From contig CM119371.1 in NCBI GenBank assembly GCA_051294905.1, positions 6,076,001 to 6,140,000 on the forward strand: a stretch of 64,000 nt of DNA. Direction: 5' to 3'. This DNA comes from Botryllus schlosseri. Lineage: Eukaryota. Under the pieces are notes generated by a model. The model did not search any database, was not told where the DNA came from, and saw only the letters and a list, made by a program, of their open reading frames with translations. Made by a program: the position numbers and the translations under genes. Positions 7,635-30,343 of the stretch are shown here, one piece after another. The first letter of the stretch is position 1. Every line of letters begins with the position of its first letter.

Positions 7635-7654
7635 ATTTTCAAGCTCGTCAACCC

Positions 7655-11436: not shown

Positions 11437-11930
11437 AGCGGGGTTGTAACCAAGTCACAAGGTTCAGAGTCACAAGCCAATCTCACTTTTATAGTTTTGT
11501 CGCGGGTCAAGTCGAGTCATTTTCAATTCCCTGCCGAGTCAAGTCCGATTCCAAGTTCAAGTCCGAGTCGCGGATTAGACTGCCGAGTCCGAGTCATAAT
11601 CATTGTGTTAACTGTCCAGTTCCAATTTAATATCATTCGAAACCCACTTTTTCCAACTCTTGCTCGGTGATATCGAAAGCTTCGCATTCATAATATACTT
11701 ATTTTCCTCACTTTTAACTGTTTCTCGTAGCATTTTCAAGTACCAGTACTGATAGACGCAATAATAATAGTGTGATAACTTTACTATTCTTCGAAATTAA
11801 AATGAAATGCATGTGTTGGTAGACCCAGTCTCGGGTCATGTGACCTGATCCGAGTCATGCGCAATGACTCGAGTAGCCTACAAGTCGAGTCAATACAAAA
11901 AGCGACTCAACTCGAGTCGAGTCATTTTTC
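11437..11930. repeat. Degenerate member of the GACTCGAGTC/AAGTC-rich repeat family
   Basis: Many CGAGTC/CAAGTC motifs like those in the elements at 36626 and 38824. Confidence 0.5.
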
Positions 11931-12351
11931 ATTTTTCCGATTCTTAAAGTACGTGGTCGTGTCTTGAAAATCCGCGTCTTCGTTTTGATATGAACGAGGA
12001 GTGCCGAAAACCATTTCCGCAAAGATAGATGGATGCTAATCCAAGATTAACGCATAACGCTTCCGACAATACTTTTGGTGTGATCGCAACATTTAGGGCA
12101 CCAAAATGAAGAAACATATATTTTATGAACATATCACGTCCAGCATCTAGCGCAGGGACAGGCCACATACGGACCGCGGGTCGAATTCGTTGTGCATCAT
12201 CCTTGCACACAATCAATAATTATAGTAAGCTTTTTTCTACATAGCAATCCCACTTGTGTCAAAATTTGTGTGAAGCGTTTTTTAGGTAACCTAGCAATTT
12301 TATCAAGTAGCCAGTACAATTTTTAAAAAAGTCATTTTTGAAACCCCTGGG

Positions 12352-12677
12352 AGTAGTAATAGATAGTGCATCGCGGTGCGGACCAATGGGCTTAGAGTAT
12401 TTAATTACGTGATATCTCTTAGCCAATCAGAACGCAGAACATTATGGGTGTGTTTCCAATACGAGAGAGGTTTTGGTTGTGTGAGAGATAGCATAGTTCC
12501 AGTTCAGTAACGCTGAGATTTTATGACATCATTATTGCGTAAGTTGATTACCTTCATTATTTATTCGCTGTGCGCTGTAGATCGAATATGTCCAAGATTA
12601 CTGCTAATGATATATACGTCATAATGAATCGGATTGACCCGATAAACTGGTATAGGTTCGCACGTGAAAAACTTGAG
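12352..12677 (+). repeat. Left terminal inverted repeat (326 bp)
   Basis: Reverse complement of 30013-30337 with 2 substitutions and 1 single-base indel. Confidence 0.97.
12383..12580 (+). promoter_or_regulatory. TIR-internal Pol II promoter and leader
   Basis: CCAAT boxes at 12383 and 12423 (AGCCAATCAG), Inr-like TCAGT at 12504, GTAAGT donor at 12539, TGTAG acceptor at 12580. Confidence 0.55.
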
Positions 12678-12869
12678 CTATCTGACAATGAAATCGCCGA
12701 ATGTCAATACATGGATTGCTACAACTTAACTGAGCAACGCTATCAAATGATACAGTTATGGATACGTAAAAATGGTCGTTACGCTACGATGAAAAAACTT
12801 GAAGAATTAGTTTACAGTTGTCTGTATCAGATACCTTCGAATAGCAATTCAACTCTTCTGTTGGATTGA
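12588..12869 (+). CDS. Death-domain protein (93 aa)
   Basis: W.RFAREKLELSDNEI...NLTEQRYQMIQLWIRKNGRYATMKKL fits the death-domain pattern (W..L.R.L.LS..EI...EQ..QML..W....G..AT...L). First 30 codons lie in the TIR. Confidence 0.8.
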   Translation: MSKITANDIYVIMNRIDPINWYRFAREKLELSDNEIAECQYMDCYNLTEQRYQMIQLWIRKNGRYATMKKLEELVYSCLYQIPSNSNSTLLLD

Positions 12870-12918
12870 AAGACATAACGTACTAAGCGAAAAATAATAT
12901 TGTGTGGACTGAAGGATA

Positions 12919-13083
12919 ATGAAGATGCTCTCAGAAGACTTCAACATTGGTTTATTCGTAATCATATGCTCGTGTATACGAAACGGGTATTGCTTTTACA
13001 TCGCAAATCAAAAAAAGGACTCTGATATCGAGGAAGTATACCAAGATCTGAAAGAAGCTCTACACCTTCATCTGAACGATTAG
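12919..13083 (+). CDS. Small orphan ORF (54 aa), not in the ORF track
   Basis: ATG...TAG, MKMLSEDFNIGLFVIICSCIRNGYCFYIANQKKDSDIEEVYQDLKEALHLHLND; AATAAA at ~13110. Confidence 0.3.
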   Translation: MKMLSEDFNIGLFVIICSCIRNGYCFYIANQKKDSDIEEVYQDLKEALHLHLND

Positions 13084-13345
13084 TTAATATGCTTGTTCGT
13101 TATTACTTCAAATAAACTGAACATGTGTATTTAATTGTGTAAAATGTGTTATAAAAGTCAGTCTACGGAAGTGAATAGACAAGTCTGAAGCTGTCTATAT
13201 TGCAGCGTATTAGAGATAGATTGTGCAATAACCTCTAAATACGGAGAGTACTGAACTTGAGTCAGTGATCTGCTTATAAACACAATGCCGCGCTCTCTCT
13301 CTCTCAACGGTGCTAACCCTCCTATGTTAGAGCAATTAAATTATT

Positions 13346-13561
13346 ATGCTACCTGGAAGTTTATCAGCACTGAAACTCATTGAACTCGACACAACAATCA
13401 CAATCACAGGAAGCTTTTATTTCGACGCACATAGCAATAAAACGAATACAATTGATATCGCATTGAGCGCGCTTCCGAGACAATTCAAAATTGTTGAGAA
13501 TTGCTTGGCATCCATCTGCGATACCCGTATTGCGTATTACCATTTGGAAAAGCTCCATTAG
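13346..13561 (+). CDS. Possible small orphan (71 aa)
   Basis: ATG start with upstream TATAAA (~13275), but it overlaps the 3' end of the opposite-strand ORF. Confidence 0.2.
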   Translation: MLPGSLSALKLIELDTTITITGSFYFDAHSNKTNTIDIALSALPRQFKIVENCLASICDTRIAYYHLEKLH

Positions 13562-14045
13562 CATTGCTAGCATTCTGGAAACTTGCATTGGCATTTGACA
13601 TGCCACCAGCATTCGAATACCCAGCATTTCCAAAGCCAGCATTGGCATTTGGAAACCCCGCTTTAGCGCGATCCATAGGCTGTATTTGACCATTAGGCGC
13701 AATAAAACGCGACGTGTCTTGTAAAATCCACCCCAGCGGTGAATTTTCTACGTCATTGACGACGTTAGACGGAGAATATAATGTATATTCATCAGCGAGA
13801 TTGATTTGCTGAAAGTATTCGACGCCTTCTCGAGTATAACACGCAACCAGTTTCCCGTTATGACTTAAAGTTGCTTTGAATCTTTGTATGGCACCATTCG
13901 TTGGAAACACACGTAGTTGTCCAGGATCAATCAATTGATCGTCTGCAGTTTCAATTCGAAGCTTCGATACGTTATTGAAAACGTAAACATCTCTCCGAAT
14001 AGCTATTTCTGAGAGTTGCGACTCGGCCCGAATAGCGATAGACAT
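13485..14045 (-). CDS. Orphan protein with N/A/G/F low-complexity C-terminus (186 aa)
   Basis: ATG ORF directly downstream of the BIR gene; beta-rich N-half; tail GFPNANAGFGNAGYSNAGGMSNANASFQNASNANGAFPNGN. Confidence 0.7.
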   Translation of the reverse strand: MSIAIRAESQLSEIAIRRDVYVFNNVSKLRIETADDQLIDPGQLRVFPTNGAIQRFKATLSHNGKLVACYTREGVEYFQQINLADEYTLYSPSNVVNDVENSPLGWILQDTSRFIAPNGQIQPMDRAKAGFPNANAGFGNAGYSNAGGMSNANASFQNASNANGAFPNGNTQYGYRRWMPSNSQQF

Positions 14046-14079
14046 AATTCAATCTAAACAAAACGTATACATTAAAGAT

Positions 14080-14466
14080 TCAACGGAAACTGTTATGCGG
14101 TATACGAATAAGCACGTTGCGAAAGAACTTTGAATCCTTTGCTAATTTCATGATCAGGGGACAGGAAGGATTGAGTGTAGCATGCTCGCTCCAAACATTT
14201 GTACAATTTGTCAAGTTATCAAACAATTGCCCACACATATAGCACTTGGCATGGAAATCGAACCCTAAGTGGAATAGCCCGCAAGTTGCGAGTTCAAAAG
14301 CATCAACTCTGAGATTCTCTTTATGAGATTCGAATGATTGCAAGCGTCGATCGAAATTCATTTTAGGAAAGACAGGGTGATTTAATAAATCACAAGGTTC
14401 ATATAGTATCTCGTCCTCTGAATTCTTCATGCATTGATGCGTTCCACACGGCTTGATCTTTTCCAT
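14080..14466 (-). CDS. Single-BIR IAP/survivin-like protein (128 aa)
   Basis: RRLQSF...ELATCGLF...KCYMC...WSEHATLNPSCP: CxxC...H...C zinc ligands with BIR spacing; TATAAAAA at 14508-14515. Confidence 0.9.
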   Translation of the reverse strand: MEKIKPCGTHQCMKNSEDEILYEPCDLLNHPVFPKMNFDRRLQSFESHKENLRVDAFELATCGLFHLGFDFHAKCYMCGQLFDNLTNCTNVWSEHATLNPSCPLIMKLAKDSKFFRNVLIRIPHNSFR

Positions 14467-14544
14467 GTTTCTTGAATAGAACTGAAATTATGGACTAGCT
14501 ACTGAGGTTTTTATAGAGCTGAGCGTGTGCTTTTCCCTGATTTT

Positions 14545-14885
14545 TTTGAATCTTAAATTTAAAAATGACTGCTTCGAAATCTCGAACGTTGTACAACTGT
14601 TTCGCAACTTTCAACTATCGCAGTTTCAAATTCAAAAAATTCAAAATCACGGCTGTTTCGCAGCTGTTATTTTTGAAATTTAAAAATGATTGATCGATTT
14701 CTCGGTCGTTGCACAACTGTCGACTGCTGCCGATTTAAATTCAACGTTCTGAAATCACGCCTGTTTCACAGCTGTTATTTTTTAAATTTAAAATGATTGA
14801 ATATCACGAATGCAACTGTCGATTACTGCAGTTTCAAATTCATTGAAATCACGGCTGTTACGCAGCTGTTTCGCAGCTGTCAACT
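14545..14885. repeat. Three degenerate ~110-bp tandem repeats in the divergent intergenic region
   Basis: Recurrent AAATTTAAAAATGA(C/T)TG and AAATCACG(G/C)CTGTT(T/A)C(G/A)CAGCTGTT blocks. Confidence 0.75.
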
Positions 14886-15110
14886 AGCGTGGGATAGTTT
14901 CATAGCTGGATACAATCATGTGTTATACTATGATCGCGAACAGTACTGGGGGCTTACAAACTCACGTGAATACCTGTGCATTGGAACTTAAGTCCAAGGC
15001 TCTCAGCCAACCTAGTAGGTATTTACGGCATTTTGCCTCAGCTATGCAAGTAGTATTTAGAGATAGCAGTGATATCCAATAAGTCATTTGCGTTTTTTGA
15101 TATTTTAGAG

Positions 15111-15620
15111 CAGAGGTCTCAAACACGCGTCCTGCGAGGTCATTTTATGCAACCGCGATGGTATTTTGAATTTCGAAGTATTCGACAATATTTAACTTTG
15201 AAAACTGGAAATTCACCCTAAAACAACTCCAGAAGCCTGAAACTACTTATCAAATGTCACTATTACGTCACTTTGAAAAGTTACGACGCAATGGAAGATC
15301 AATGTATACTTCGGCGATAGGACATTATTTCTATTGCTATGACACAGTAATCATTATATTCAAGTTGTTATAGATCTGTTCTAATATTCAGAGGTAAATC
15401 CAATGCTGATTGAATTTGAATTAGGTAATAACATGATCAATACCATCGTTATCCTGAGTATGCACGAAACTCGGATTAGGCTGTAGTGTCCATTAGCTAC
15501 AAAATTATAACGCGACAGCTTTTACGATTAATTATTGATGCTGCGACTCGCGGTGCCATCAAAAAGTAAGAAATTTGCATGCAAATTTGCCCGCGGGCGC
15601 ATATGATTTTGAGTCCTCTG
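15111..15620. mobile_element. Charlie-like hAT MITE inside the Polinton
   Basis: TIRs CAGAGGTCTCAAA / TTTGAGTCCTCTG, subterminal GCCCGCGGG; 8-bp flanks TTTTAGAG / CTGTACGG match only 4/8. Confidence 0.75.
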
Positions 15621-15760
15621 CTGTACGGGATCAACTAAGTTCGTGCAGGTGCGTTTTGTTATTGTTGAGCACAGCTATTATTAGTGAATAGATTTTCAAC
15701 GGTTTAGATACGCTAGATATTCGAATACGCGACTTGACTTTAGTTAGTATCATATTGAGA

Positions 15761-17035
15761 ATGAATACTGTGCAAGTCGCTAACGAGATGAATCAAGTCG
15801 CTAATGACAATGCGAGTTGTAGTACGACTCAAGTTGACGTGATTGACCTCACTGGTGATGATAGCAGTAAAGGTAAATCGACCAACTCGATTGAAAGTTT
15901 TGATTGGCAAAACACGCAACCTTTTGTTAAAATTCATCGTGTGGATGAGAATCTACAGAGTGAAGAACCTCCAGTCAAAATTCGTTGTACGGAAGCGACG
16001 TGTGCAGAGATACGCAAAATTATGAAAGATGGTTATTTTGGTGTAGCGCCTGCAAACAAGCGAGAAGATACACAAACAGCGATGTTAAGTGGCTTGTCTG
16101 ATGATGATGATTCGAGTTCGACGATGATATCGAATATTAGATCGTTAGCTAGTGATCAAAGTGCCTCGTCTGATTCTGATTCAACAAATGACGTATCCTC
16201 GGTTGATAGTGATCGTCGACGCTCTATGATTTCTGTTATTCGACTGTTGCGCGAATCCAATACGAGTGAAATTCTGCCAAGTGAATATAGGAGCGATCGA
16301 AAATTCATTAAAGTGATCGAAAAGTTAAGTCCTCAACCCACGATTCAAAATGCTAGTTGTATGTATTCTGCACTTGAAAAAAATATCACCGAAATTTGGT
16401 ATGCCGGCCAAATGCGTAGTCTTAATTTCCTCAGAGCTGTATTCGTTGTTTGCATCTTTGAAGGTTATGTTCGCCGCAGAGATATAGCCCCGAATTTTTG
16501 GTTTGAGGGTGATTGTCATTCTGGTAAAGACATACTGACTCATATGTTTTTGACTAGAGATGTAGCAAACTATGTATTGAGTACTTTGGAAAAGTTGGAT
16601 GCATTCAGATATTACGATGCTGACAAATCTATTTGCATGTTTCCGAATTGCGGTAGTATTTTCATGAATAATGCTGTTCTCCAAGAAACTATTATGACAG
16701 TACAACGCACAGCTGTGAGCTGTGATTATGGCTTGATTAAGCCTGCCTCTTTCTGGATGTTTTGTGATGTGAAAAATGGTTCTGAGATCATGACTGAAAA
16801 GTATCCACTATCATTTGCCGGAAAAACTATTATCGTAAAATTTGGAAATAAACTTTTCGATCCGTCAGTAGAAGTGTTGAATGATCACGGTCGCGATACT
16901 GTTCTGTATTCGTTATTGAATCTTACTTCAGTAAAAACTCGCGATGCAGGCAATGAAGTAGAAACTGATATGCATGCAACGAGTTTCTATGATAAATTTC
17001 GTGAAATCAAACGTGTTTACGACGAATGTGAATGA
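15761..17035 (+). CDS. Orphan protein (424 aa), acidic/Ser-rich disordered N-half with SIM-like motif
   Basis: Long ORF, first ATG at 15761; VDVIDLTGDD; SDDDDSSS tract; globular-looking C-half. Confidence 0.8.
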   Translation: MNTVQVANEMNQVANDNASCSTTQVDVIDLTGDDSSKGKSTNSIESFDWQNTQPFVKIHRVDENLQSEEPPVKIRCTEATCAEIRKIMKDGYFGVAPANKREDTQTAMLSGLSDDDDSSSTMISNIRSLASDQSASSDSDSTNDVSSVDSDRRRSMISVIRLLRESNTSEILPSEYRSDRKFIKVIEKLSPQPTIQNASCMYSALEKNITEIWYAGQMRSLNFLRAVFVVCIFEGYVRRRDIAPNFWFEGDCHSGKDILTHMFLTRDVANYVLSTLEKLDAFRYYDADKSICMFPNCGSIFMNNAVLQETIMTVQRTAVSCDYGLIKPASFWMFCDVKNGSEIMTEKYPLSFAGKTIIVKFGNKLFDPSVEVLNDHGRDTVLYSLLNLTSVKTRDAGNEVETDMHATSFYDKFREIKRVYDECE

Positions 17036-17133
17036 ATTTGATGCATGTTGATTCAGTACTAATTCAATATTTTGATGCATGCGTGTCGATACAGTGCTAA
17101 TTGGATCTTTTTTTGTGTTGTTTGTAGCTCAGT

Positions 17134-17544
17134 ATGGATAACTTCATTGACATAAGCGACTTGTTAGATATGAACGCACCTCATCAAAGTGTAAATGCTA
17201 CGATGCAGGCTCCAAGAAAAGACTTGAACAAAATATATCAGAGTCAAAAAGAAAGCCGAAAGCGCTCGCGTCAAGACACTATGTCTTTGATCGAAGGTCT
17301 AGTTGACGATGATTTAAAGATGGAAGCTATGTGGAATCAACTTGTTTCGATGGAAGTATTTGACCAAGACTATTCGAAAAATTTTCTGAACATAATTAAA
17401 AATGTCATGAAAGATATTGAAAAACTATCTAGTGACTCGAACGCTTGCATTGTTGAGATTCAGCGTCTTGAAAAAATTAAGTTTGTATTTCTATACGGTG
17501 TAATTAAATGTAAACTGCGCTTGAAATATGGATTCAATTTCTAA
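17134..17544 (+). CDS. Orphan helical protein (136 aa)
   Basis: ATG ORF filling the gap before polB; pyrimidine-tract/AG acceptor 6 nt upstream. Confidence 0.7.
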   Translation: MDNFIDISDLLDMNAPHQSVNATMQAPRKDLNKIYQSQKESRKRSRQDTMSLIEGLVDDDLKMEAMWNQLVSMEVFDQDYSKNFLNIIKNVMKDIEKLSSDSNACIVEIQRLEKIKFVFLYGVIKCKLRLKYGFNF

Positions 17545-17592
17545 TATATGTAGTGACTATTGTCTTGATATTTTTCAGATACTAGTATCTAT

Positions 17593-20500
17593 ATGGCGCG
17601 ACGCAGGCGATATGGAGATCGAGGATTTGTGGTCGACGAAACGCTGGGTTTCGAACAAGACGGCATTGAGGTGATTGAAAGACACTACGATTCCATCATC
17701 GATTCGACCTGGACTTCAAGGAACAATGTGCAAGAAATCATCAACATTCGAATGGTCGGAAGAGCTCCGCTCGAAATTCACGCGCGTATAGCAGACATTT
17801 ACCCCAGAAGATACCGTCAGTTTAAAATGAATCTGGCGTATGGCTTTCTATTATTCAACCGTGAGACATCCAGATATAGTTATTATCATCCTCAGAGTTC
17901 ACAAGCGGTTTTTAATGTCCCTAAAACTATCATATCGCGTGAAGATTTCGATACCGTCACGAATGAGATCGATTTGACAGCGGGTTTTGAATATGCAAAT
18001 CGAGTGCGACCAGATACAAAGTTCTACTGTGCTGATGTGTTGCATATTTCTATTTACATTTATGAAATGGATAGAGCTTTACTCGGTGGAAGTACTTCCA
18101 TTTCCCCGGAGATGCAAGCACTAAGCAAATGTAACTATATCATGACTTTCCTGCGTAATCGCGAAGGCAAAGCATATGCAGATTCTCTGTGCATATTCAG
18201 ATCCATTTCATATGTGATGAAAAAAGCGCGTAATGAAACACATGTTCTGCAATTAGCCGCTCAATTCACAGCTCGTTACGATATCTCAACTGAGAACGGA
18301 GTAGCTTTCGAAGACTTATCAAAAGTTGAGGAATGTTTTCAAGTTCGAATACTGCTTTATGAAAAACGTAATCAAGGCACAGTTATGCTGCGTAATTCTC
18401 GTGCTAATGGATTGACTATACCTATTCATAGACTTGAAAATCACTGTTGCCTGATTAGGGACCTGAAATTGTACACCTCTACCTATATGTGTGATAAGTG
18501 TAAATTTTTCTTTACTAGAAAAGATGCTTTGATGAGGCATATGAAAAGCGTTGATTGTGAGCGTCCCCAAAAACAGCGATACGGTTTCGGTATTTATCGT
18601 CCTAAGATGACGGTGTTTGAGCGAATGGCGGAACAGGGAATTTTGGTTAGTACTGAAAAACGATATTACCCCTTCAGAATCGCTTATGATTTCGAGAGTT
18701 TATTAGAAAAAGAAAATCTTCGAGCTGATACACCGAAAGTCGAAATTGTCAACAAGCATGTTGCGGTATCGGTATCTCTCTCAGATAATGTTACGAATGA
18801 AACGCATACACTCATTTCTAGCGGTGATCCTAACGTTTTAATTAACGATATGGTGGGCAAACTGTATGAGATTCAAAACATCGCATCTTTGCATATGCGA
18901 CGGTTATTTGAAAAAGAATTGAAAGATTTTCGTATGCTAATTGAACGTCGTAATGCGATTGAACCAGGCAAAACTCGCTATTTAGATCGCTTGTATCGTC
19001 ACTTCGAAATTTGGTTGGATCAAATACCTGTGATTGGATTCAACTTGGCTCGTTACGATTTGAATCTTTGTAAAAAATATTTGATTCCTATTCTGCAAGA
19101 AGAAAGTGGATTTTTCGTTTTGAAACGGAACAGCGCATATCTGACTATTAGTACCAACAGATTGAAATTCCTTGACATTTCGCTATTTCTGTCACCGGGA
19201 TATAGTTTGGAAGCGTATTTGAAAATTTATGGAAATGGTGTGGACAACAAATTTTATTTTCCCTATGAGTACATGACTTGTATCGATAAATTGAATGACA
19301 CGCAATTACCTCCACATGAAATGTTCTATAGCAGTCATCGAGGCACTAATATCACCGCGGCGCAATACCAAGAATGTGTCGATATGTGGAATCGTTTGCA
19401 AATGAAAACCATGCGAGACTTCCTAACTTTTTATAACGAAAGTGACGTGATTGGCTTTTTGGTTGCGTTAGGTAATAACGCTGCCTTTTACCAAAACTTG
19501 GGTATTGACATGTTCAAATCTGCTATCAGCTTACCAAACATAGCCAATCAACTCATGTTCGCGGAATGTTACGACATCGCGCTGTTCAGTAAAGCGAATG
19601 CTGATCTCCATCAAACTGTAGTGAACAATCTATTTGGAGGTCTGTCACAGATATGTTCACGATTTGCAATGAAAGACGTAACGAAAATTCGTGAAATGCG
19701 CTACGGAGATGATGCGAAATACGTAAAAAAGATAATAGGATATGACGCAAATTCGCTCTATTTGTCATCCATTGATCAATACATGCCGTGTGGATTTCCA
19801 ATCAGGTGGTTGTATGACGCAACCAAACAAAAATTTCACAGAAAGCCAATTTATCCTGCGATGGCAGAACTCGAATGGCTGACTTATGAAAGTTATCAGC
19901 GCGGTATTTCAATTCAACACGCCTGGAACGGCAAGCAAGCTCGTCTTGGGTCGCGTCAAATTGCGGTCGATGGCTTCTCCCTTGAGCATCAATTGATATT
20001 TCAGTATCAGGGGTGTTTTTTTCATTCGTGCGATCAATGTTATAAGGACGCCGCAAACATTGAGCGACGTATTAAAACAGAAGAAATTACTGCCTATTTC
20101 GAAGAGTTGGGATACACGATAATATCAATACGCGAATGTGAATGGAATCGCATGAAACTCCACCCTGACATTGCGCAGTTTCTTTCGTCACTACAAAGAA
20201 ATGTAACAAAAGAGTATTATCTCACAGCGGACCAACTATTAGATCGCGTATTTCATCAACAGTTCTTTGGCGCATTAGAAGTCGATGCGCACTGCCCTGA
20301 TGAATTAAAAGAAAAATATTCAGAATTTCCGCCATTTTGTAAACATATCTCGGTAGATATATGCGATATCGGCGAACATATGAGCGAATATGCCCGCGAA
20401 AATAATGTGAAATTTCCGAAGACGTTTTTGGGCTCTAGTTATTTCACTGAGAAACAACTAATTACAAGTGATTTGTTGGCTTGGTACATGGATCACGGTA

Positions 20501-21459: not shown

Positions 21460-21463
21460 TAAA

Positions 21464-22084
21464 ATGAACCGTGCACGTGTTTTATACTCGCCTCTTCGTA
21501 TGATAATTAGTGGAGCTTCGTGCAGTGGAAAAACAGTTTTTGCCTATAGAATCGTACAAAATGCTAACAAGCTAATCGTACCTCGACCGAGAAAGATCAT
21601 CTGGTTATATAATAACTATCAACCGTTGTACGACAAGATGCAAGGAGTGACATTTTACAAGGGCCTAGACAAATTGAAAGATTTACAGAGAGCTAAAGAT
21701 GAACATACGTTAATTGTGTTAGATGACATGATGACAGAAGCAAGTCAAGTACGTGAACTGTTCATTAGAAAAAGTCACCACCTGTCACTCTCAGTTTTAT
21801 ATTTATGTCAAAATCTATTTCACCGAGGAGCAGGCTTCCGTGATATTACGCTGTCTAGCAACTATATAGTCATCATGAAAAATCCTCGTGATTCTGCACA
21901 GATTCGATATCTGTCACGTCAAATGTTCCCAGATAAACCAAACCTTCTCACGGAAGCTTACAAGAGAGCAACTCGTAAGGCTTATTCATATATCCTGGTC
22001 GATTTGACGCAGGAAACATCCGAACAGTATCGACTTCGCAGCAACATTTTTCCAAGCGAACGTATGACCGTGTATTCGGAATAA
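21464..22084 (+). CDS. A32-like DNA packaging ATPase (206 aa)
   Basis: Walker A GASCSGKT, Walker B LIVLDDM, RKSHH, IVIMKNPRD, Y.Y+LVDL.Q. Confidence 0.95.
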   Translation: MNRARVLYSPLRMIISGASCSGKTVFAYRIVQNANKLIVPRPRKIIWLYNNYQPLYDKMQGVTFYKGLDKLKDLQRAKDEHTLIVLDDMMTEASQVRELFIRKSHHLSLSVLYLCQNLFHRGAGFRDITLSSNYIVIMKNPRDSAQIRYLSRQMFPDKPNLLTEAYKRATRKAYSYILVDLTQETSEQYRLRSNIFPSERMTVYSE

Positions 22085-22119
22085 ATAGCGCTGTACTCGA
22101 ACATTCACTATCATTCGCA

Positions 22120-22524
22120 ATGGCGAGGTCACGTGGTGTTTTGAAAAAAACTTTAAATAATCATCTTATCAAGTTGAAGTTGCTAAAGAGTGCTAAAAAG
22201 AAGGAACGTAACGAGCTATTAACTCACAAAGCTTTTACCGCCTGTGTGTGTGAGTGTCTTCGTAACCTTGTCTCGGGCAATATAGCTATTTCAAGTACGA
22301 GTAAGGCACGATTGAAGAAGTATAAAAGTAACATTCGCAAAGTGTTGTGCTGCAAATCTCAAAAACAGAAGCAAAAAACATTACAACAGGGTGGCTTTTT
22401 ATCAGGTGAATATACATGCGATTCGATTCGATTCATGATCTAACTTTAATGATTTATAGCGATCTTAAGTGCTGCGATTCCGATTATTGGAAGTCTGTTA
22501 GGCGGATTGACTAAACATGCGTGA
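22120..22524 (+). CDS. Spliced basic core protein, adenovirus pX/pVII-like (116 aa; exons 22120-22405 and 22460-22524)
   Basis: Removing a 54-nt GT...CTAAC...AG intron gives ...QQGGFLSAILSAAIPIIGSLLGGLTKHA*, like adenovirus pX GGFLPALIPII. Confidence 0.8.
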
Positions 22525-23080
22525 ATTGTACTTTCCTCCTTTACAATCAAAAGACGCCTACGAAAAGAAATTCAATGAACATATCGCTAGCATCAGGGAC
22601 TCTGATTTGACACGCATCGAAAAATTAGCACTATTTCAACACGGCATTAGACTATTGAGAAACCTACGTGCGAATAAGAAATCGATCAAGTCGTCGACCC
22701 GCGCACCGCCAGCGGCCGCTACCAATGAAACAATTAGCGCGTCGAAACCGCCCGGAGCGGCGCTCGCTATTAATAACACATTTGACGCGACACCTCCGTC
22801 GACGCCCGAGATTTGGAGCAATTACGAAGCAGTAACTCCACCCCATACGCCTAAAACTTCAAAGAAAAAGGTTAAAAAGAAGAAGAAAGCCACTCCGTCC
22901 GCAACACCCGAGATTTGGAGCAATTACGAAGCAGTAACTCTACCCCATACGCCTAAAACTTCAAAGAAAAAGGTTAAAAAGAAGAAGAAAGCCAATAAAC
23001 CTCCTGTTAATTGGCAAAGCATTGACGGTCCGCGCAAACGAAAGCCGAATCAACGCTACACAGGAAAGTTATGGACATGA
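22517..23080 (+). CDS. Lys/Pro/Thr-rich protein with 34-aa duplication (187 aa)
   Basis: ATG ORF; repeat TPEIWSNYEAVT(P/L)PHTPKTSKKKVKKKKKA; stop overlaps integrase ATG (ATGA). Confidence 0.8.
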   Translation: MRELYFPPLQSKDAYEKKFNEHIASIRDSDLTRIEKLALFQHGIRLLRNLRANKKSIKSSTRAPPAAATNETISASKPPGAALAINNTFDATPPSTPEIWSNYEAVTPPHTPKTSKKKVKKKKKATPSATPEIWSNYEAVTLPHTPKTSKKKVKKKKKANKPPVNWQSIDGPRKRKPNQRYTGKLWT

Positions 23081-24090
23081 CGCTAGCTAACAAGAGAGAC
23101 TATTTCGATCCCCGCAAACCAAACTCCTATAGAGGAGCTTATTTACAGAATGACAAAGAATGGTTGAAATCAGAACAAAGTTATACCCTGCATTTTCCTA
23201 TACGAAAAAAATTTACTCGCGAGAAGGTGGTGGTCTCTGGAATTGATAGTCAGTTTCAAAGCGATTTGATTGATGTGCAGTCTATTTCTAAATACAATCG
23301 TGGATTTAGATATCTGGCTTTGGTTATTGATACGTTTTCAAAGTTTGTGTGGTTGATTCCAATTAAAGATAAAACTGGTCGCAGTATGATTTCTGCTTTC
23401 CGACAAGTGTTCAATGAGAGGCTGCCTTTAGTGTTGCAGACTGATAGAGGTACAGAATATACCAATCGAGCTTTTCAAAACTTTCTCAAGAAAAATAAAG
23501 TTCGTTACTTTTACACAAAAAGCGAATTGAAATCGTCTCAGGCCGAGCGTTGGATTCGCACTTTCAAGGCAATCTTGTACCGCTATTTCACGAAGAATAA
23601 CACCAGTAAATACATCGACGTGCTGCAGGATTTCGTATATTCCTACAATCACACTAAACATACGTCGTTAGGTATGGCTCCAAGTCAAGTCAATTCACAT
23701 AATCAAGAAGCTATTTGGCAAAAAATGTATGGGTTTCGACAAGCTACACTTCCCACTCTGACGAAAGGAACAGCCGTACGCATTTCGAAAATTCGCGGGC
23801 TTTTTGAAAAGAGCAGTAGACCCAATTGGACAACTGAGATATTTTATATCATTGACGCAATGGCTGGCGACCCTCCGATGTATCGCTTGCGTGACTATAA
23901 TCATGACGTTATCGATGGTAGGTTTTACAGAGAAGAACTACAGCTGGTGACCGAACCTACAGAGTGGCGTATCGAAAAGATTATAAAGACACGTCAACGC
24001 GCCAAACACCGTCAGTATTTAGTTAAATGGATAGGATATGGAGCAGAGTTCAACTCCTGGATCGATCAAAAAGATATCGTCAAACCGTAA
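23071..24090 (+). CDS. int: Retroviral-type (rve) integrase with C-terminal chromodomain
   Basis: QSDLID, LQTDRGTE, AERWIRT (D,D,E); chromodomain IEKII...YLVKWIGYGAEFNSW. Start at 23071 or 23077. Confidence 0.96.
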   Translation: MDMTLANKRDYFDPRKPNSYRGAYLQNDKEWLKSEQSYTLHFPIRKKFTREKVVVSGIDSQFQSDLIDVQSISKYNRGFRYLALVIDTFSKFVWLIPIKDKTGRSMISAFRQVFNERLPLVLQTDRGTEYTNRAFQNFLKKNKVRYFYTKSELKSSQAERWIRTFKAILYRYFTKNNTSKYIDVLQDFVYSYNHTKHTSLGMAPSQVNSHNQEAIWQKMYGFRQATLPTLTKGTAVRISKIRGLFEKSSRPNWTTEIFYIIDAMAGDPPMYRLRDYNHDVIDGRFYREELQLVTEPTEWRIEKIIKTRQRAKHRQYLVKWIGYGAEFNSWIDQKDIVKP

Positions 24091-24250
24091 CTTTTATCAG
24101 TTCATCGCTCAAGTCGTGGTTATACTAATCATAGTGATTTTTTCACTCTACAATTTGACAATCGTTCAAGAAAACAAGGAGCTTTGGGTATCGTTATTAT
24201 CATCGTGTGTGGGTTATATGTTACCAGCTCCAAAAATACCTAAACTATGA
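24038..24250 (+). CDS. Small membrane protein (70 aa)
   Basis: Hydrophobic FIAQVVVILIIVIFSLYNL and WVSLLSSCVGYMLPAP; stop overlaps the next ATG (ATGA). Confidence 0.65.
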   Translation: MEQSSTPGSIKKISSNRNFYQFIAQVVVILIIVIFSLYNLTIVQENKELWVSLLSSCVGYMLPAPKIPKL

Positions 24251-25086
24251 GTTATGTGACGTTATTTTCGAATGGTTCTATGGATATGTTTCCTGACAAT
24301 ACAACCGCACAATATGTCAATGAAATACAGACGGCTAGAAATGTAGAGAGAAATGAGATCGCTCTGACGGAGATCAGTTTTCCTAGAGATTTTGAAAAAC
24401 GTATCGAGTCACGTGCTTCTTTCGGATTCGAAATTACGGGTTTCGAACAAAGCTTTAGGAGATTTAGGTTGAAAACTGGACAATATGACTCGCTCTACGC
24501 CATGTTTAAAACCTTGGAAAGTATCAACCCTGATGTAGCAGTAAACTGTTTTCCTGAGAGCAACACCCTAACTGTGTCAATTCCACACGAAGACAGCACA
24601 GATATCTTATATCCTGGAGTGGATACGCGATATAGTATCGTGACCAGAGAGAACGATTATACAGCAACGTTGAAGAATATAGAAACTCCAGATGCCTACA
24701 CTCTCGCGACTTTCACATTACCAAATACAGCAGCGCTATCCGCATACTCTTTCTCAAAGAAAAAAATACATTTCAATTTCGATATAACACCCGTACCATC
24801 AATTGACTTTGTATACGTTCATTGCGATATTATTGAACCGCAAGAATTCAATGGTACATTACAGCGCCTATTGCGAGTGGTGAAAGTCGAGGGAGATAAG
24901 AAGGCGTTTTCCAAATACTACATAAAGCCTTTCTTCTTCCCTGTAAATATAAATAGATTGGAACGTATAAAAATATCTTTGTTAGATGTCAATGGTGTAA
25001 AAATTCCATTTCGGAGTGCACCGTCTATAGTGCCGTACTGCAATTTCGAAAGCGTGCTATTGCGTTATGAAATACATCCACATTAG
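24247..25086 (+). CDS. Minor capsid (penton-like) protein 1
   Basis: YVTLFSNGS.DMFPDNT, EIALTEISFP, YVHCDIIEPQ, LLRVV, IKISLLDVNG; possible frameshift near 25033. Confidence 0.85.
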   Translation: MSYVTLFSNGSMDMFPDNTTAQYVNEIQTARNVERNEIALTEISFPRDFEKRIESRASFGFEITGFEQSFRRFRLKTGQYDSLYAMFKTLESINPDVAVNCFPESNTLTVSIPHEDSTDILYPGVDTRYSIVTRENDYTATLKNIETPDAYTLATFTLPNTAALSAYSFSKKKIHFNFDITPVPSIDFVYVHCDIIEPQEFNGTLQRLLRVVKVEGDKKAFSKYYIKPFFFPVNINRLERIKISLLDVNGVKIPFRSAPSIVPYCNFESVLLRYEIHPH

Positions 25087-25816
25087 CAGTTCGAAATCGG
25101 ATTTTGTAGTTGACTTAGCACGCCCCATCACTGGAAAATGGGAGTTGGGGCTTGCGGAATTTTCAGTTCGTAATCAGTTTCAAACTACTTTACCGCATTT
25201 CAATGGATTGTTATGGGAATTTCAAGAGGAAAAATCATCTGCTCTGTTGGCAACGCAAAGCAATAATTATTTTTTCTATCCAAATGGGGATTATTATGAT
25301 TTCAAAAGCTTGATCGATAGAATCAATCGTAGTCAGACAAAGGTATGGATAAATCAGCTGTCAAGTTCAACAGCTATGCTAGTCATTCCCCCTAGCGAAG
25401 CAGGTGCCTTTCCGAATTTCCGAAGAAATCCAAAGAGAATCAGAAACCCGGTTTTCGTATATGGGAATCTTAAAGAACAAAATTTACCGCAAGGAAAATA
25501 TTTAACTTCGCAAATGTACCTGCGAAATGATATTGAACCTATCAGTAATTTATTGGTCTATACCGATCTCATTCGACCGCAAACAGTCGGTGATACGAAT
25601 GCACCACTATTGCGAAATATCCCTATAACAGCAGCTAACAATGAATACCAACATCACATTTTTGAGAAAATCTACTTTTTCCCTATGATCACGGAATATG
25701 CCAATCGAATTAGAATTAGTATTAGAGACGATAAAGCGGAATCTATAAATCTGAATGGTTCTGTAGTTCATATCACACTTGCTTTACGTCACGATGAGGG
25801 CACATTACTGTTGTGA
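25067..25816 (+). CDS. Minor capsid (penton-like) protein 2
   Basis: SDFVVDLARPITGKWELGLAEFS, VYTDLIRPQTVGDTNAPLLRNI, IRISIRDD. Confidence 0.85.
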   Translation: MKYIHISSSKSDFVVDLARPITGKWELGLAEFSVRNQFQTTLPHFNGLLWEFQEEKSSALLATQSNNYFFYPNGDYYDFKSLIDRINRSQTKVWINQLSSSTAMLVIPPSEAGAFPNFRRNPKRIRNPVFVYGNLKEQNLPQGKYLTSQMYLRNDIEPISNLLVYTDLIRPQTVGDTNAPLLRNIPITAANNEYQHHIFEKIYFFPMITEYANRIRISIRDDKAESINLNGSVVHITLALRHDEGTLLL

Positions 25817-26162
25817 TCGTGAAGCTTTTCAACACTATTATCGAAATCAAAGCGGAGCGGGCATAAACTACTTTCGAGGTCGAGTGCAAAGAGGTCACGG
25901 TCTAGGTAATCTATTTCGTAGTTTGGGACGTAGTGTGGTTCCCTTGATTTCCAAAGGAGCGAAAGCTCTGGGTAGACAACTACTTCACACTGGGGCTGAA
26001 GTCGCGTCTGATGTATTGGGAGGACAAAACATCGGCGAAAGCTTTAAAATCAGAGGAAATCAAGCTGCTAGTCAAGCACTTGATAATTTCCTGGGAAAGA
26101 GAAAAGCACCTAGAAAGAAAAATACCAAACGGAAAAAACGTCGTCGGGATATTTTTGATTAA
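25794..26162 (+). CDS. pVI-like / membrane-active internal virion protein (122 aa)
   Basis: YYRNQSGAG, QRGHG followed by amphipathic LGNLFRSLGRSVVPLISKGAKALG; basic tail. Confidence 0.75.
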   Translation: MRAHYCCDREAFQHYYRNQSGAGINYFRGRVQRGHGLGNLFRSLGRSVVPLISKGAKALGRQLLHTGAEVASDVLGGQNIGESFKIRGNQAASQALDNFLGKRKAPRKKNTKRKKRRRDIFD

Positions 26163-26212
26163 ATACAAATAGTAAGCCTTCCTCTTTTCATTTACAAGTA
26201 GACTCGCGGAAC

Positions 26213-27490
26213 ATGACGGAGCTGATTCATAGCAAATCTGCTGAAGGTATTCATCCGTCTTTAGATCTTTACCAGATACCACCTACTCAGACGAGTGTAG
26301 AGAAAATACGTATCATCAAGATACCTCCTGTTTCGGACAATGAGAGCGTTATAACTTTCAGATATGAGGGGTGTGGAGATTTCATAGATCTAAGCGAATC
26401 TTATTTTTTATTTCGTCTGAAACTGCTGAACGGCGATGCGGATTTAGTCGCAAATGATGATATTGGTGTTGTCAATAACATTTTAGATTCAATGATTTCA
26501 CAACTTCACATTAAAGTTGGAAATCACACGATCAAGCAGGATATTAAACTACAAGCGTATTCGGCCTACTTGAACTATCTGTTCGCCCCACAAGACGTAC
26601 AAACGTCAACTCTTTTGACACAGGGTTGGGTCAAGGATACCCCTGAGCAATTAGATGATAAAGCTATAGGCGATGATGCAGCTAACAAAGGTCACAACGC
26701 GAGAAGTTTGCCTTATGCAACCAGTAAAGTTGTTGAAATAAGAGGTCGAATACATCACGGATTATGCTTACAAGACCGTTACATTCTGGATGAGGTACCC
26801 TTGGAGTTCGAACTCACTTTGAACCCGAAAAGTTTTTTTCTGTTTGGATTGAATACTAGCAATTTCAAAATAATTAAAAAAGAGCTGCAATTGTGCGGCG
26901 TGAAAGTAAGCGAAGATGTGAAATCCGCAATGATGGTCGATGCTCCAGCTAGATATCCGTACATGGACATGAAACTTCTGAGCAGAACTTTCGCAGCTAA
27001 CACCACTCAAATCGATATTGGTAATCTGTATTCGGGTACTCTACCGACTCGTTTAATCATCGGTATGGTAGCGACTAGCGCATTCCAGGGTGCGTTCGAT
27101 AAAAATCCATACAATTTTATTCATAACAAAATGAAACGTGTCGAATTGAAAGTCAATGGTTTCCTGATACCGGAAGGTGGATACGAACTTGATTTTGAAA
27201 ACAATCACTATTCTGAAGCCTATCTCAACATGGTTCAAGGCATAGGAGCTCTCGAAAAACAGATCGGAGTCCTTACCCCGAAGGAATTCGCTAATGGATA
27301 TACTCTTCTAGTATATAACTTGCGAGCTGATGATCTAGACGACTGTTTCGAACTGCAGAAAAGCGGCACAGTTAGTCTGCGGATCACTTTTCCTGCTGAT
27401 GGTGTTGCGAGCGAAACAACTCTGCTTTGTTTCATGGAATTCCAAAAAATACTAGAAATAAGCCAAGGTCGCACGGTTACTATAATATGA
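26213..27490 (+). CDS. Major capsid protein (double jelly-roll, hexon-like; 425 aa)
   Basis: LDLYQIPPTQTSV, IDLSESY, NNILDSMISQL, PTRLIIGMV...FQG...NPYNF; lies before the protease as in Polintons. Confidence 0.93.
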   Translation: MTELIHSKSAEGIHPSLDLYQIPPTQTSVEKIRIIKIPPVSDNESVITFRYEGCGDFIDLSESYFLFRLKLLNGDADLVANDDIGVVNNILDSMISQLHIKVGNHTIKQDIKLQAYSAYLNYLFAPQDVQTSTLLTQGWVKDTPEQLDDKAIGDDAANKGHNARSLPYATSKVVEIRGRIHHGLCLQDRYILDEVPLEFELTLNPKSFFLFGLNTSNFKIIKKELQLCGVKVSEDVKSAMMVDAPARYPYMDMKLLSRTFAANTTQIDIGNLYSGTLPTRLIIGMVATSAFQGAFDKNPYNFIHNKMKRVELKVNGFLIPEGGYELDFENNHYSEAYLNMVQGIGALEKQIGVLTPKEFANGYTLLVYNLRADDLDDCFELQKSGTVSLRITFPADGVASETTLLCFMEFQKILEISQGRTVTII

Positions 27491-27939
27491 ACGGACTAGA
27501 AATAGATGAAATATTGTATAGTTACGATTCTACCAAACGACATTATCTAGGAAATTTTCCTATTGATCGACTTCCTCGGCGACCGAAACCTCCCTACTCA
27601 TTAATCATTAATTACGATGAGGCCGACGAACCAGGAAGTCACTGGGTATGCATCTACGCTGATGAACATGGAACTCATTTCCACGACAGCTTCGGTATAC
27701 CTCCGTTCAGAAATGAAATACCCTGTTTCCTAGAACCTGAAAAGTATACCAGTTCGATCAAACCATTACAGCACAAACGTTCAGAAGCTTGCGGAGCCCA
27801 CGCAATTTCATTCCTAAGCTGTCGCAGTGATGGCATGAGCACACTGTCTTATTTAGAGCACTTCGGAAAAGATAAGAAACACAACGACAGTATAGTCTGG
27901 GACTTTCTTCAAAAATTAAAACGAAATGCGAGCAAATAG
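27487..27939 (+). CDS. Adenain-like cysteine protease (150 aa)
   Basis: GSHW, HDSFG, LQ...CG (H-D-Q-C); ATG overlaps the MCP stop (ATGA). Confidence 0.95.
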   Translation: MNGLEIDEILYSYDSTKRHYLGNFPIDRLPRRPKPPYSLIINYDEADEPGSHWVCIYADEHGTHFHDSFGIPPFRNEIPCFLEPEKYTSSIKPLQHKRSEACGAHAISFLSCRSDGMSTLSYLEHFGKDKKHNDSIVWDFLQKLKRNASK

Positions 27940-28249
27940 CTTCACTGTCATACAGTACTTTGGTGATGATGAGAAGATTCAACTGAAAATCAGAGAAAAA
28001 GTCATTGTAATGAATCCTGAACGCATTCACAGACTTTCATTCGATAGCTTTCATATACGTATTTATCCACATGACCGAGATATTACATTATTCATTGGAA
28101 CTGATTGCTTACCTGTACGCTTTCCTAACCATTGTATGTACATAGACGTGTTATCGAAACATAGAATTGCTCAACAAATCAGTGAAGAATTTGTTGTTTT
28201 TCGTAGACTAAAAATCTGTGAATTTCTGACTAGAGCATCGCGTATATAA
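27926..28249 (+). CDS. Orphan protein (107 aa)
   Basis: ATG ORF overlapping the protease end; tight packing. Confidence 0.6.
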   Translation: MRANSFTVIQYFGDDEKIQLKIREKVIVMNPERIHRLSFDSFHIRIYPHDRDITLFIGTDCLPVRFPNHCMYIDVLSKHRIAQQISEEFVVFRRLKICEFLTRASRI

Positions 28250-28265
28250 GTCACAATATCTTTCT

Positions 28266-28376
28266 ATGGAACATGTCGATGATATCTTAGCTGTCGTGTT
28301 CATTGTTCTGCTTACTATTTGTTGTATACTGGAATGGATATCGTATTGCTGTCAAGAACAAGCTAGTGAAGCATGA
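28266..28376 (+). CDS. Small single-pass membrane protein (36 aa), not in the ORF track
   Basis: MEHVDDILAVVFIVLLTICCILEWISYCCQEQASEA*; stop overlaps the next ATG (ATGA). Confidence 0.55.
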   Translation: MEHVDDILAVVFIVLLTICCILEWISYCCQEQASEA

Positions 28377-28696
28377 CCATGGCTAGAATTTCCGTTGGTG
28401 CACAGTTTGATTCGAGTCGTAATTATGAAGAAATGATTGTATTACCTAACGTGAGATCAATTACCATTCCCTATACGTGTATACTTTTCCATTATGATAA
28501 TAGAATTGTAGTGAAACCCATAGAAGATTGTGTTACGCACTCGTCGCGTAATATCATTGTCTGTAAAGACGAACATTATCGTGTGCTTTATAAATCACCC
28601 TTAGTTATTGATTTCAAGGGTAAGGCAATTGTTGTTGGTAATATAATCCTATTCCAAGTGTTTTGGGATGGATGTGTTCGATTCATAACTCAATAA
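28373..28696 (+). CDS. Orphan beta-rich protein (107 aa)
   Basis: ATG ORF whose TAA stop is part of an AATAAA signal. Confidence 0.6.
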   Translation: MTMARISVGAQFDSSRNYEEMIVLPNVRSITIPYTCILFHYDNRIVVKPIEDCVTHSSRNIIVCKDEHYRVLYKSPLVIDFKGKAIVVGNIILFQVFWDGCVRFITQ

Positions 28697-28818
28697 ATCA
28701 CTGATTTCGACTCGTGTTCTTTTCTGTTCGGTCGTGTTTATCCTGAGGCGCATCCCTTAGCTAGTAGAGAAATGCAGATTCGTCAATAAACCTTCAGTTA
28801 CGTAGATTCGTCAATAAA
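28692..28818 (+). terminator. Three polyadenylation signals in short repeats
   Basis: AATAAA at 28692, 28785, 28813 within repeated (GATTCG)TCAATAAA(TCACTG). Confidence 0.55.
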
Positions 28819-28982
28819 TCACTGTTTCTAACTCGCGCTATTTATCATATAACCAACAAAGACACATTATGGAGTTTTTATTACAAAAGGTTGCGCGCAG
28901 TCTTTTCAAAGCACACCGTTGTGAGTGACAATCAAAAAATGATGATATTGCGTCAGTCATTAGCAATTCAACGGAAAAATAG

Positions 28983-29054
28983 TGGAGAATACGGGAATTG
29001 AACCCGTGACCTACTGTTTGCAAGACAGCCGCTCTGCCGCTGAGCTAAATCCCC
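28983..29054 (-). tRNA. tRNA-Ala(UGC)
   Basis: GGGGATT TA GCTC AGCGGCA GAGC G GCTGT CTTGCAA ACAGT AGGTC ACGGG TTCAATT CCCGT ATTCTCC A; complete cloverleaf, G3:U70, A73; TTTTT 3 nt downstream. Confidence 0.92.
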
Positions 29055-29077
29055 AAGTGATAGTGACGGCTTAAGTG

Positions 29078-29377
29078 TTAGTTTTCAACAGTAGCATTAG
29101 CAAATTTAAGAGATAGCTCTACTGTAGCCGTTGACTTGAAAACAACTCGATGTTCTTCTTTCGTTACTTCAGTATCGTATATCTTCATTGTTTTTCTTTC
29201 GTCATGATCACATGGTACCAGCTCTGTATAATTACATCCTTCACATTCTACTATAGTGAAAGGATACGATATTTCAACTGAATCCACACCAAGCATTTTC
29301 ATACATTTCGAATATACTATCCATGATACGGTCTTGGATCCAATAAACTTATTACCGTTTATTCGCACGGAACCCAT
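29078..29377 (-). CDS. Orphan protein (99 aa)
   Basis: ATG at 29377 (MGSVRINGNKF...), TATAAA ~40 nt upstream, CEGC/C motif. Confidence 0.55.
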   Translation of the reverse strand: MGSVRINGNKFIGSKTVSWIVYSKCMKMLGVDSVEISYPFTIVECEGCNYTELVPCDHDERKTMKIYDTEVTKEEHRVVFKSTATVELSLKFANATVEN

Positions 29378-29414
29378 GATGTAAATATAACAAATAGTAA
29401 CTGCGATTGAGCCT

Positions 29415-29900
29415 TTATAAGTGATACCACGTGACAAAATGCTTCCATCCGCCATTTTCTTCAATCCACTTTAGTTTCCTAGTAGCAATGTAATTCCCGA
29501 CTGTTTGTATGATAGCATCTATATGCCTGCTATTATTGCGAGCAAGTATGCCGCCAAGCACATAGAGAGACACAATCCGACCCCAATTTTCTTGATTATC
29601 TTTGAACCTTCCATCGGCTATCATCAGGAACATTCGCTCAACGGGTGAATATTCTTTATCTTTCTCATTGACTTCAATATCACTATAACGAATGCGCTTG
29701 GAGACTGCGTTTAGGATGGTTCGATATCGCTCAAATATTTCATTAGCAACTCGTCGTAAGGTTTTCTCCACCTGCGTATTTGCTTTAACGCTTGAGCCGT
29801 CGATTTCATACATGATAAAATTTCTAGCTAAGGAATATGCCGTGGATATAATTTCATCCTTTTCTTCAGTGAGCGCAGGTGATACTCGCAATAACGCCAT
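29415..29900 (-). CDS. Bcl-2 family protein without C-terminal TM anchor (161 aa)
   Basis: BH4-like LARNFIMY, BH3-like LRRVANEI, BH1 NWGRIVSLYVLGG, BH2 WIEENGGWKHF; GCCATGG start context. Confidence 0.93.
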   Translation of the reverse strand: MALLRVSPALTEEKDEIISTAYSLARNFIMYEIDGSSVKANTQVEKTLRRVANEIFERYRTILNAVSKRIRYSDIEVNEKDKEYSPVERMFLMIADGRFKDNQENWGRIVSLYVLGGILARNNSRHIDAIIQTVGNYIATRKLKWIEENGGWKHFVTWYHL

Positions 29901-29954
29901 GGCTCTGAAGATAACAGTGAGCTCATGTGTACCAACCAAGTCAACGCAATACTT

Positions 29955-30012
29955 TTATAAGTGATACTACGCCACAAAATGCTTCCATCCGCCATTTTGT
30001 TCTATTCAATTT
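29955..30012 (-). pseudogene. Remnant C-terminus of a second Bcl-2 paralog
   Basis: 50/57 nt identical to the Bcl-2 3' end; reads N*IEQNGGWKHFVA*YHL*. Confidence 0.8.
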
Positions 30013-30337
30013 CTCAAGTTTTTCACGTGCGAACCTATACCAGTTTATCGGGTCAATCCGATTCATTATGACGTATATATCATTAGCAGTAATCTTGGAC
30101 ATATTCGATCTACAGCGCACAGCGAATAAATAATGAAGGTAATCAACTTACGCAATAATGATGTCATAATATCTCAGCGTTACTGAACTGGAACTATGCT
30201 ATCTCTCACACAACCAAAACCTCTCTCGTTTGGAAACACACCCATAATGTTCTGCGTTCTGATTGGCTAAGAGATGTCACGTAATTAAATACTCTAAGCC
30301 CATTGGTCCGCACCGCGATGCACTATCTATTACTACT
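30013..30337 (-). repeat. Right terminal inverted repeat (325 bp)
   Basis: Inverted copy of 12352-12677. Confidence 0.97.
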
Positions 30338-30343
30338 CCTGGG

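Follow-up and report, generated by a model that had tools for sequence, protein, structure and literature searches.

Intact Mavericks (Polintons) with terminal inverted repeats (TIRs) and target-site duplications (TSDs) of 6 bp are known from vertebrates, where 134 copies have been described in 17 species (Barreat and Katzourakis 2021, PMC8097293). They begin with (AGT)2 and end with (ACT)2, measure 12,723 to 24,620 bp, and have TIRs of 46 to 1,447 nt. Their genes are ordered pol-atp-pm-pz and int-mcp-pw-Mcp-pro, with accessory regions at both ends; in Xenopus tropicalis both modules lie on one strand. The Beta adintoviruses combine a family B DNA polymerase (PolB) that lacks a match to pfam03175 with an rve integrase, an FtsK-type ATPase, adenain, hexon and penton, and are already known to carry Bcl2 and inhibitor-of-apoptosis (IAP) cargo (Starrett et al. 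2021, PMC8502044). Here, an element of this kind is described from Botryllus schlosseri. It lies in a stretch of 64,000 nucleotides (assembly GCA_051294905.1, contig CM119371.1, forward-strand positions 6,076,001 to 6,140,000) that is called the window and is numbered from its first letter.

The element is a complete and unbroken Maverick/Polinton of 17,986 bp (12352-30337). The same six letters, CCTGGG, stand on both sides of it, its termini are AGTAGT on the left and ACTACT on the right, and its TIRs align over 326 columns with two substitutions and one 1-nt indel. The terminal signature of Mavericks/Polintons, (AGT)2 or (AG)3 ends with TIRs and a 6-bp TSD, is thus present in full. The initial annotation, made from the sequence alone, had called the insertion near-intact, with a perfect TSD and TIRs that differ at 3 of about 326 positions; these statements hold, and the open reading frames (ORFs) it named are all uninterrupted. 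Size, TIR length, ends, gene order and accessory regions agree with the intact vertebrate elements, and both modules lie on one strand as in X. tropicalis. Twenty ORFs occupy 81% of the element and 98.5% of its core (17593-27939). All eight conserved ORFs by which PMC8097293 recognises an intact Maverick are unbroken, with pm, pz and pw named by gene order only. Coordinates are collected in Table 1.

Profile searches found no PF03175 match for PolB, and because of this the element belongs to the Beta class as defined in PMC8502044. It is a full-length Beta-type Maverick/Polinton (adintovirus) with the gene set and the Bcl2 and IAP cargo of that group. Its closest relatives among Logan/ENA proteins are P0001 for the major capsid protein (MCP; 69%), P0009 for PolB (50%), P0159 for the protein in the pm position (69%) and P0008 for Bcl-2 (41%). 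The kind of element is already known, and novelty lies only in the extras, namely a death-domain gene, a tRNA gene and a predicted intron. Two penton-like ORFs, the tRNA gene and the predicted intron in the pm-position gene distinguish it from the intact vertebrate Mavericks of PMC8097293. Compared with the Beta adintoviruses, the death-domain-only gene is an apparent difference, judged from the searchable supplement text, and in the available part of PMC8502044 tRNA flags occur only in the legend for MELD viruses, which have other replicases.

The preferred reading, to which a probability of about 0.6 is given, is that this copy is a young, coding-complete and latent Maverick. Its family would show early-type transcription with silent structural genes, and intact copies would likely act as helpers for derivatives that bear the element's ends. 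Such a copy is likely dormant rather than particle-making.

The enzymes appear complete. PolB is collinear, in a single stretch, with relatives of 1281-1300 aa, and its best match reaches 50% over residues 4-1195 (the first 1200 residues were searched). Motifs Exo I-III and Pol A-C are all there; full-length relatives and motifs together identify a protein-primed family B polymerase. When PolB is aligned with the first 45 of 150 matches, those sized 1150-1450 aa, it departs from 7 of the 85 columns whose conservation is 90% or more, none of them catalytic. A possible OTU-like domain at its N-terminus, a feature of Beta adintoviruses, has Cys and His motifs in common with P0009 by eye, and no profile match. 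Walker A and B are kept in the ATPase, D65/D125/E159 in the integrase and H52/D67/Q95/C102 in the protease, whose match to S273R of African swine fever virus (ASFV) has an E-value of 0.002.

On the capsid side, MCP is full length against six relatives, and a relative named major capsid protein matches it with an E-value of 3.5e-40. Penton-like ORFs A and B are similar to each other (E 3e-6) and lie one gene from MCP, as the single jelly-roll penton PX does. Neither matches an entry in the profile libraries, and the model of ORF B (predicted local distance difference test, pLDDT, 31) was too poor for a fold search. The earlier statement that the hallmark genes are uninterrupted and keep their catalytic motifs therefore stands for PolB, ATPase, integrase, protease and MCP, while the label "two pentons" is weaker, since these unbroken ORFs are confirmed neither by a library match nor by a confident fold.

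Established Maverick and adenovirus biology suggests roles for these products. The integrase would join a linear, TIR-ended genome to host DNA and leave a 6-bp duplication. Once the genome is freed, the polymerase would replicate it from its AGT ends in a protein-primed manner; packaging and maturation would fall to the ATPase, capsid, pentons and protease.

Two measures bear on age. Divergence between the TIRs is 0.46% per copy (95% 0.09-1.3%), and the absence of stops from 10,230 core coding nucleotides limits neutral substitution to less than 0.58% (95% upper bound). At the TIR rate about 1.6 stops would be expected there (P 0.2 for none). The same rate, taken at face value, predicts about 16 indels (95% 0.4-87) in the 11 core ORFs, which have neither stop nor frameshift. 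That the single indel falls in the TIRs and not in the core has P 0.06; it may be older than the insertion or reflect an error of assembly. Signs of wear, which may predate insertion, are limited to the 510-bp repeat, the broken 59-bp duplicate of the Bcl-2 gene and the in-frame 102-bp duplication. Since there are no core stops and TIR divergence is low, the youth proposed in the initial annotation is plausible, at a drift below about 0.6%; the copy is not demonstrably current.

The element is nested in a small host repeat that has inverted ends (12282 to 30553), and a paralogue of this repeat at 30824-31078 aligns from the left flank into the right flank without a break, like an unoccupied site. 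Loose ends at 12322 and 12342 stem from host-repeat paralogues. Both flanks are high-copy repeat, the family is multi-copy, and the source reads are not among the runs found, all of which would allow an assembly artefact that merges several copies. Against this stand the matching TSDs and the continuous empty-site paralogue. In addition, the studied copy has private letters missing from nearly all mapped contigs, whereas a merge would carry the majority letters, and an artefact is very improbable. The observed/expected ratio of CpG is 1.25 in the element and 1.09 and 0.92 in the flanks, with no CpG depletion.

Runs were compared with 20400-30000 by shared words, and shares below 0.2 were disregarded. 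Part of this region is carried by 20 of the 24 listed runs and none carries half or more; no run holds an exact copy, because the best share is 0.40. None of the listed carriers is recorded as an RNA run, a fact without bearing on expression. Related sequence at shares of 0.20-0.40 occurs in runs labelled with three organisms and in a marine metagenome.

Reads of four of the 24 runs were mapped to 11450-30012, with the right TIR and flank outside. The DNA run X2 covers 30 of 30 bins and includes short contigs with 0-1 differences at a depth of about 20. Its sister contigs, at depths of about 205-380, have deletions of 1-11 nt in the polymerase, integrase and penton ORFs; the studied copy has none. 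Contigs of X10 are about 5-8% diverged with few gaps. Depth in X2, which is not a copy number, reaches 7702 and 4502 in the bins just inside the ends, versus about 350-1475 in the interior outside the internal repeat. This end-deep coverage fits derivatives that keep only the ends, that is, end-bearing satellites. Intact copies would likely supply enzymes to these abundant derivatives.

Three genes near the ends concern the control of cell death. The closest solved structure to the death-domain protein is the death domain of TNFR1 (E 1e-5). Because its gene starts in the left TIR, the shared upstream sequence with three CCAAT boxes also faces the Bcl-2 gene, which lies behind a 53-codon frame. 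The identical TIRs would likely form twin inward promoters, one for the death-domain gene on the left and one for the Bcl-2 gene on the right. BH1 (NWGR) and BH2 are intact in the Bcl-2 protein, which has no membrane tail; the BIR protein keeps its zinc ligands (C-x2-C-x16-H-x6-C) and has no RING match. Together the death-domain, Bcl-2 and BIR proteins would keep the host cell alive by blocking receptor-level, mitochondrial and caspase-level death signals, respectively.

Expression of the family is seen in X23, a shallow raw single-cell RNA run of other individuals of which 3 in 100 were read, scored over 28 bins from 12688 on. Strand was assigned from tool text and from agreement with genes on both strands. 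Depth exceeds 1 in 7 of the 28 bins, nearly all of it gene-sense: 6.7 for the death-domain gene, 34.1 for ORF186 (the deepest sense signal of the family), 4.2 for the BIR gene, 4.8 for ORF424, 1.3 for ORF136, 3.3 for the 3' end of PolB and 1.2 for the ATPase. Bins over 21973-23210 are at zero and two bins over 23211-24448 at 0.2. Sense depth is 0 in the six bins that hold penton, capsid and protease genes (24449-28162), where antisense depths of 0.15 and 0.47 occur. The RNA-seq check proposed in the initial annotation thus gives sense reads for the end genes and PolB of the family, with an apparently silent capsid side and reads that are not copy-specific. Polinton genes are known to be expressed in corals (PMC11131425), and no expression was detected in nematode Mavericks (10.1101/2022.07.12.499685). 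Public single-cell data exist for the host and already show strand-specific early-gene reads, so early versus late expression could be studied per cell type with existing data.

Several observations weigh against a young and latent copy as the source of these signals. Reads of X23 are mostly 90-95% alike (940 of 1779 mapped, with flank repeats counted in; 39 reach 99% or more). Their source is therefore sister copies or derivatives and not demonstrably the studied copy, and end-gene reads may belong to satellites. X23 has low counts, and libraries of the single-cell type have a 3' bias. Depth in the Bcl-2 bin reaches 0.23, contrary to the idea of twin promoters, and X21, an RNA run of organism B of which 12 in 100 were read, gave one read. 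A contig of X10 runs unspliced across the predicted intron, although X10 may be DNA. Finally, the 25 coding differences from sister copies comprise 15 replacements and 10 silent changes (p 0.056 vs neutral 0.24; the 25 are the coding rows among 40 selected of 1132), and hidden missense damage is therefore possible.

The last point would also suit a dead or fixed fossil with missense or regulatory damage, in which case the RNA would come from other copies or satellites. The same is true of the three TIR differences, the 510-bp repeat, the broken remnant at the right end and the 102-bp duplication, which is absent from the X10 copy; in vertebrates, 96% of Maverick loci are degraded (PMC8097293). 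A fossil is nevertheless unlikely, as the core ORFs are free of the stops and indels expected at the TIR rate and all catalytic residues are retained.

The opposite alternative is a lineage that is at present leaving the genome, replicating and making particles. The full gene set with its host-control cargo would permit this, the related sequence in several labelled organisms and the marine metagenome (of these runs only X2 and X10 were mapped) would fit it, and about half of 49 polintoviruses of corals express hallmark genes (PMC11131425). The silent penton, capsid and protease bins of X23 and the single read of X21 point the other way. Free linear ends were not seen in the mapped runs, and no relative appeared in scans of viral contigs (MCP, ATPase) or of metagenome contigs (MCP). 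According to PMC8097293, particles were yet to be observed, and virion-making by animal Mavericks is still an open question. An active lineage is accordingly judged quite improbable. The suggestion of the initial annotation that the element might still excise or make virions finds no direct support, and intactness alone is unsurprising because 134 intact vertebrate copies are known.

An example of an extra that would depend on the host is the predicted intron in the pm-position gene. The ORF at 22120 stops soon after a Q-x-G-G motif. A donor at 22406 (CAG/GTGAAT) and an acceptor at 22459, in a sequence of 70% A+T, would join it to a predicted second exon that would form a 20-residue amphipathic helix with a hydrophobic moment of 1.5. 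An alternative donor upstream, at 22391, leads to an identical frame downstream. P0159 (69%), the sole relative found, ends at the same place, after G-G-F-L-S-G-K, and its stop fits a G/GTAAGT donor there, as judged from the protein (the DNA of P0159 was not seen). X23 has no RNA reads over the predicted intron. No introns were noted in the intact elements of PMC8097293; the "Cupiennin" gene of Beta adintoviruses is membrane-active (PMC8502044). Host splicing would be needed before the late protein in this position has its membrane-active helix, and release at the Q-x-G-G site would fall to the protease. If the intron is true, annotation by ORFs alone truncates the pm-position protein in relatives.

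The tRNA-Ala gene has a G3:U70 pair, which is an identity element for alanine. Both the A box and the B box are present, and a T5 run lies directly downstream. Matches to phages do not exceed about 80% across most of the length, which is generic tRNA likeness. Nor does codon need account for its presence, as GCA makes up 70 of 265 Ala codons.

The known accessory set would be enlarged by the death-domain-only gene, the tRNA gene and a lytic helix that depends on splicing. The supplement text of PMC8502044, as far as it is searchable, does not mention a death-domain gene; its map figures are not searchable and may already include extras of this kind. Among the literature titles listed, none concerns a death-domain gene, a tRNA gene or a core intron in an animal Maverick, a weak result since most subscription papers and all figures are unsearchable.

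Many of these features recall adenoviruses. Adenoviruses have a linear genome with inverted ends, a protein-primed polymerase, early genes that point inward from both ends, E1B-19K of the Bcl-2 type, VA RNA as a product of RNA polymerase III, the amphipathic lytic protein VI that a protease releases, and splicing. The element differs in its integrase and TSD, and the likeness of the extras is one of function, no sequence test having linked them. In a more elaborate version of the preferred reading, the lineage would be an animal virus that resembles adenoviruses, is latent and expresses its genes in stages. TIR promoters would drive early an anti-death set of three tiers (a death-domain decoy, the single BIR and Bcl-2), the virus would have a tRNA gene of its own that RNA polymerase III transcribes, a conserved intron of host type would gate a membrane-lytic peptide of the virion, and intact copies would still mobilise a large satellite population as helpers. 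As a whole, this version is doubtful.

Table 1. Features of the Maverick/Polinton element, by position in the window
Feature	Coordinates	Strand	Basis or remark
Left TSD, CCTGGG	12346..12351	+	
Left TIR, 326 nt	12352..12677	+	AGTAGT terminus; three CCAAT boxes; codons 1-30 of death-domain gene
Death-domain-only ORF, 93 aa	12588..12869	+	Begins inside TIR; Pfam Death E 1.3e-10
ORF186, 186 aa	13485..14045	-	No family
Single-BIR IAP-like ORF, 128 aa	14080..14466	-	Pfam BIR E 1.6e-9
About three degenerate 120-bp tandem copies	14555..14870	.	Differ among sister copies
510-bp repeat like a miniature inverted-repeat element (MITE)	15111..15620	.	Intergenic; short inverted ends; flanking 8-mers not identical; excess depth
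ORF424, 424 aa	15761..17035	+	Possible degenerate superfamily 3 (SF3)-helicase-like domain (lead only)
ORF136, 136 aa	17134..17544	+	No family
PolB, 1288 aa	17593..21459	+	Full-length relatives, motifs; no PF03175 match
Packaging ATPase, 206 aa from likely start	21464..22084	+	Longest ORF from 21353; Pfam Pox_A32 E 4.7e-8
Gene in pm/"Cupiennin" position	22120..22524	+	Basic ORF runs to 22443; second exon predicted from 22460; named by gene order in PMC8097293 and PMC8502044
Predicted phase-1 GT-AG intron, 54 nt	22406..22459	+	Branch-point-like CTAAC at 22440
ORF in pz/"Adintoc2" position, 187 aa	22517..23080	+	In-frame 102-bp tandem duplication
rve integrase, 339 aa	23071..24090	+	C-terminal chromodomain; Pfam rve (PF00665, above cut-off) and Chromo
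Small hydrophobic ORF, 70 aa	24038..24250	+	
Penton-like ORF A, 279 aa	24247..25086	+	Putative
Penton-like ORF B, 249 aa	25067..25816	+	Putative; low-confidence fold
Basic core-protein ORF in pw/"GasderminX" position, 122 aa	25794..26162	+	Q-x-G-x-G motifs; named by gene order
MCP, 425 aa	26213..27490	+	Relatives; weak Pfam match of double jelly-roll (DJR)-like type
Adenain-type cysteine protease, 150 aa	27487..27939	+	Catalytic motif; ASFV S273R match
ORF, 107 aa	27926..28249	+	No family
ORF, 107 aa	28373..28696	+	No family
tRNA-Ala(UGC) gene	28982..29054	-	Complete; 69 bits
ORF, 125 aa	29078..29455	-	No family
Bcl-2-family ORF, 161 aa	29415..29900	-	Pfam Bcl-2 E 7e-18
59-bp degenerate duplicate of Bcl-2 3' end	29954..30012	-	Two in-frame stops; adjoins TIR
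Right TIR, 325 nt	30013..30337	-	
Right TSD, CCTGGG	30338..30343	+	

Two of the remaining ORFs deserve mention. ORF424 has borderline Atlas feature matches (0.90) to Parvo_NS1/RNA_helicase clusters and a Walker-A-like motif at residue 250; an acidic Walker B is not evident by eye. Pfam, PHROGs and PDB give no support for an SF3 helicase, and the fold of residues 161-424 has a pLDDT of 34. Contigs of X2 skip 15714-16720 and 16765-17118, so some sister copies are without most of ORF424. ORF186 has no match in Atlas, Pfam or PHROGs; its C-terminus is repetitive and rich in Asn, Ala and Gly.

Other mobile elements and repeats are found elsewhere in the window. A Gypsy-type long terminal repeat retrotransposon at 5370-9382 (- strand) has an open gag-like frame of 575 aa and a pol frame of 771 aa with reverse transcriptase, RNase H and an integrase zinc finger. 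A fragmented BEL/Pao retrotransposon lies at 46105-49452 (- strand), with Peptidase_A17, Integrase_H2C2 and DUF5641. At 10433-11357 a 240-bp unit is repeated in tandem about four times, with copies 70-99% alike, and a nested inverted-repeat element at 36630-39720 is rich in TGACT/GACTCGAGTC units. The repeat pair 42730-43038 and 61697-62223, 19 kb apart, is 64-90% alike over the listed pieces. Finally, a 1.6-kb fold-back at 55316-56914 combines 531-nt arms at 89% with further inverted arms in a nested arrangement, and its spacer measures about 160 nt.

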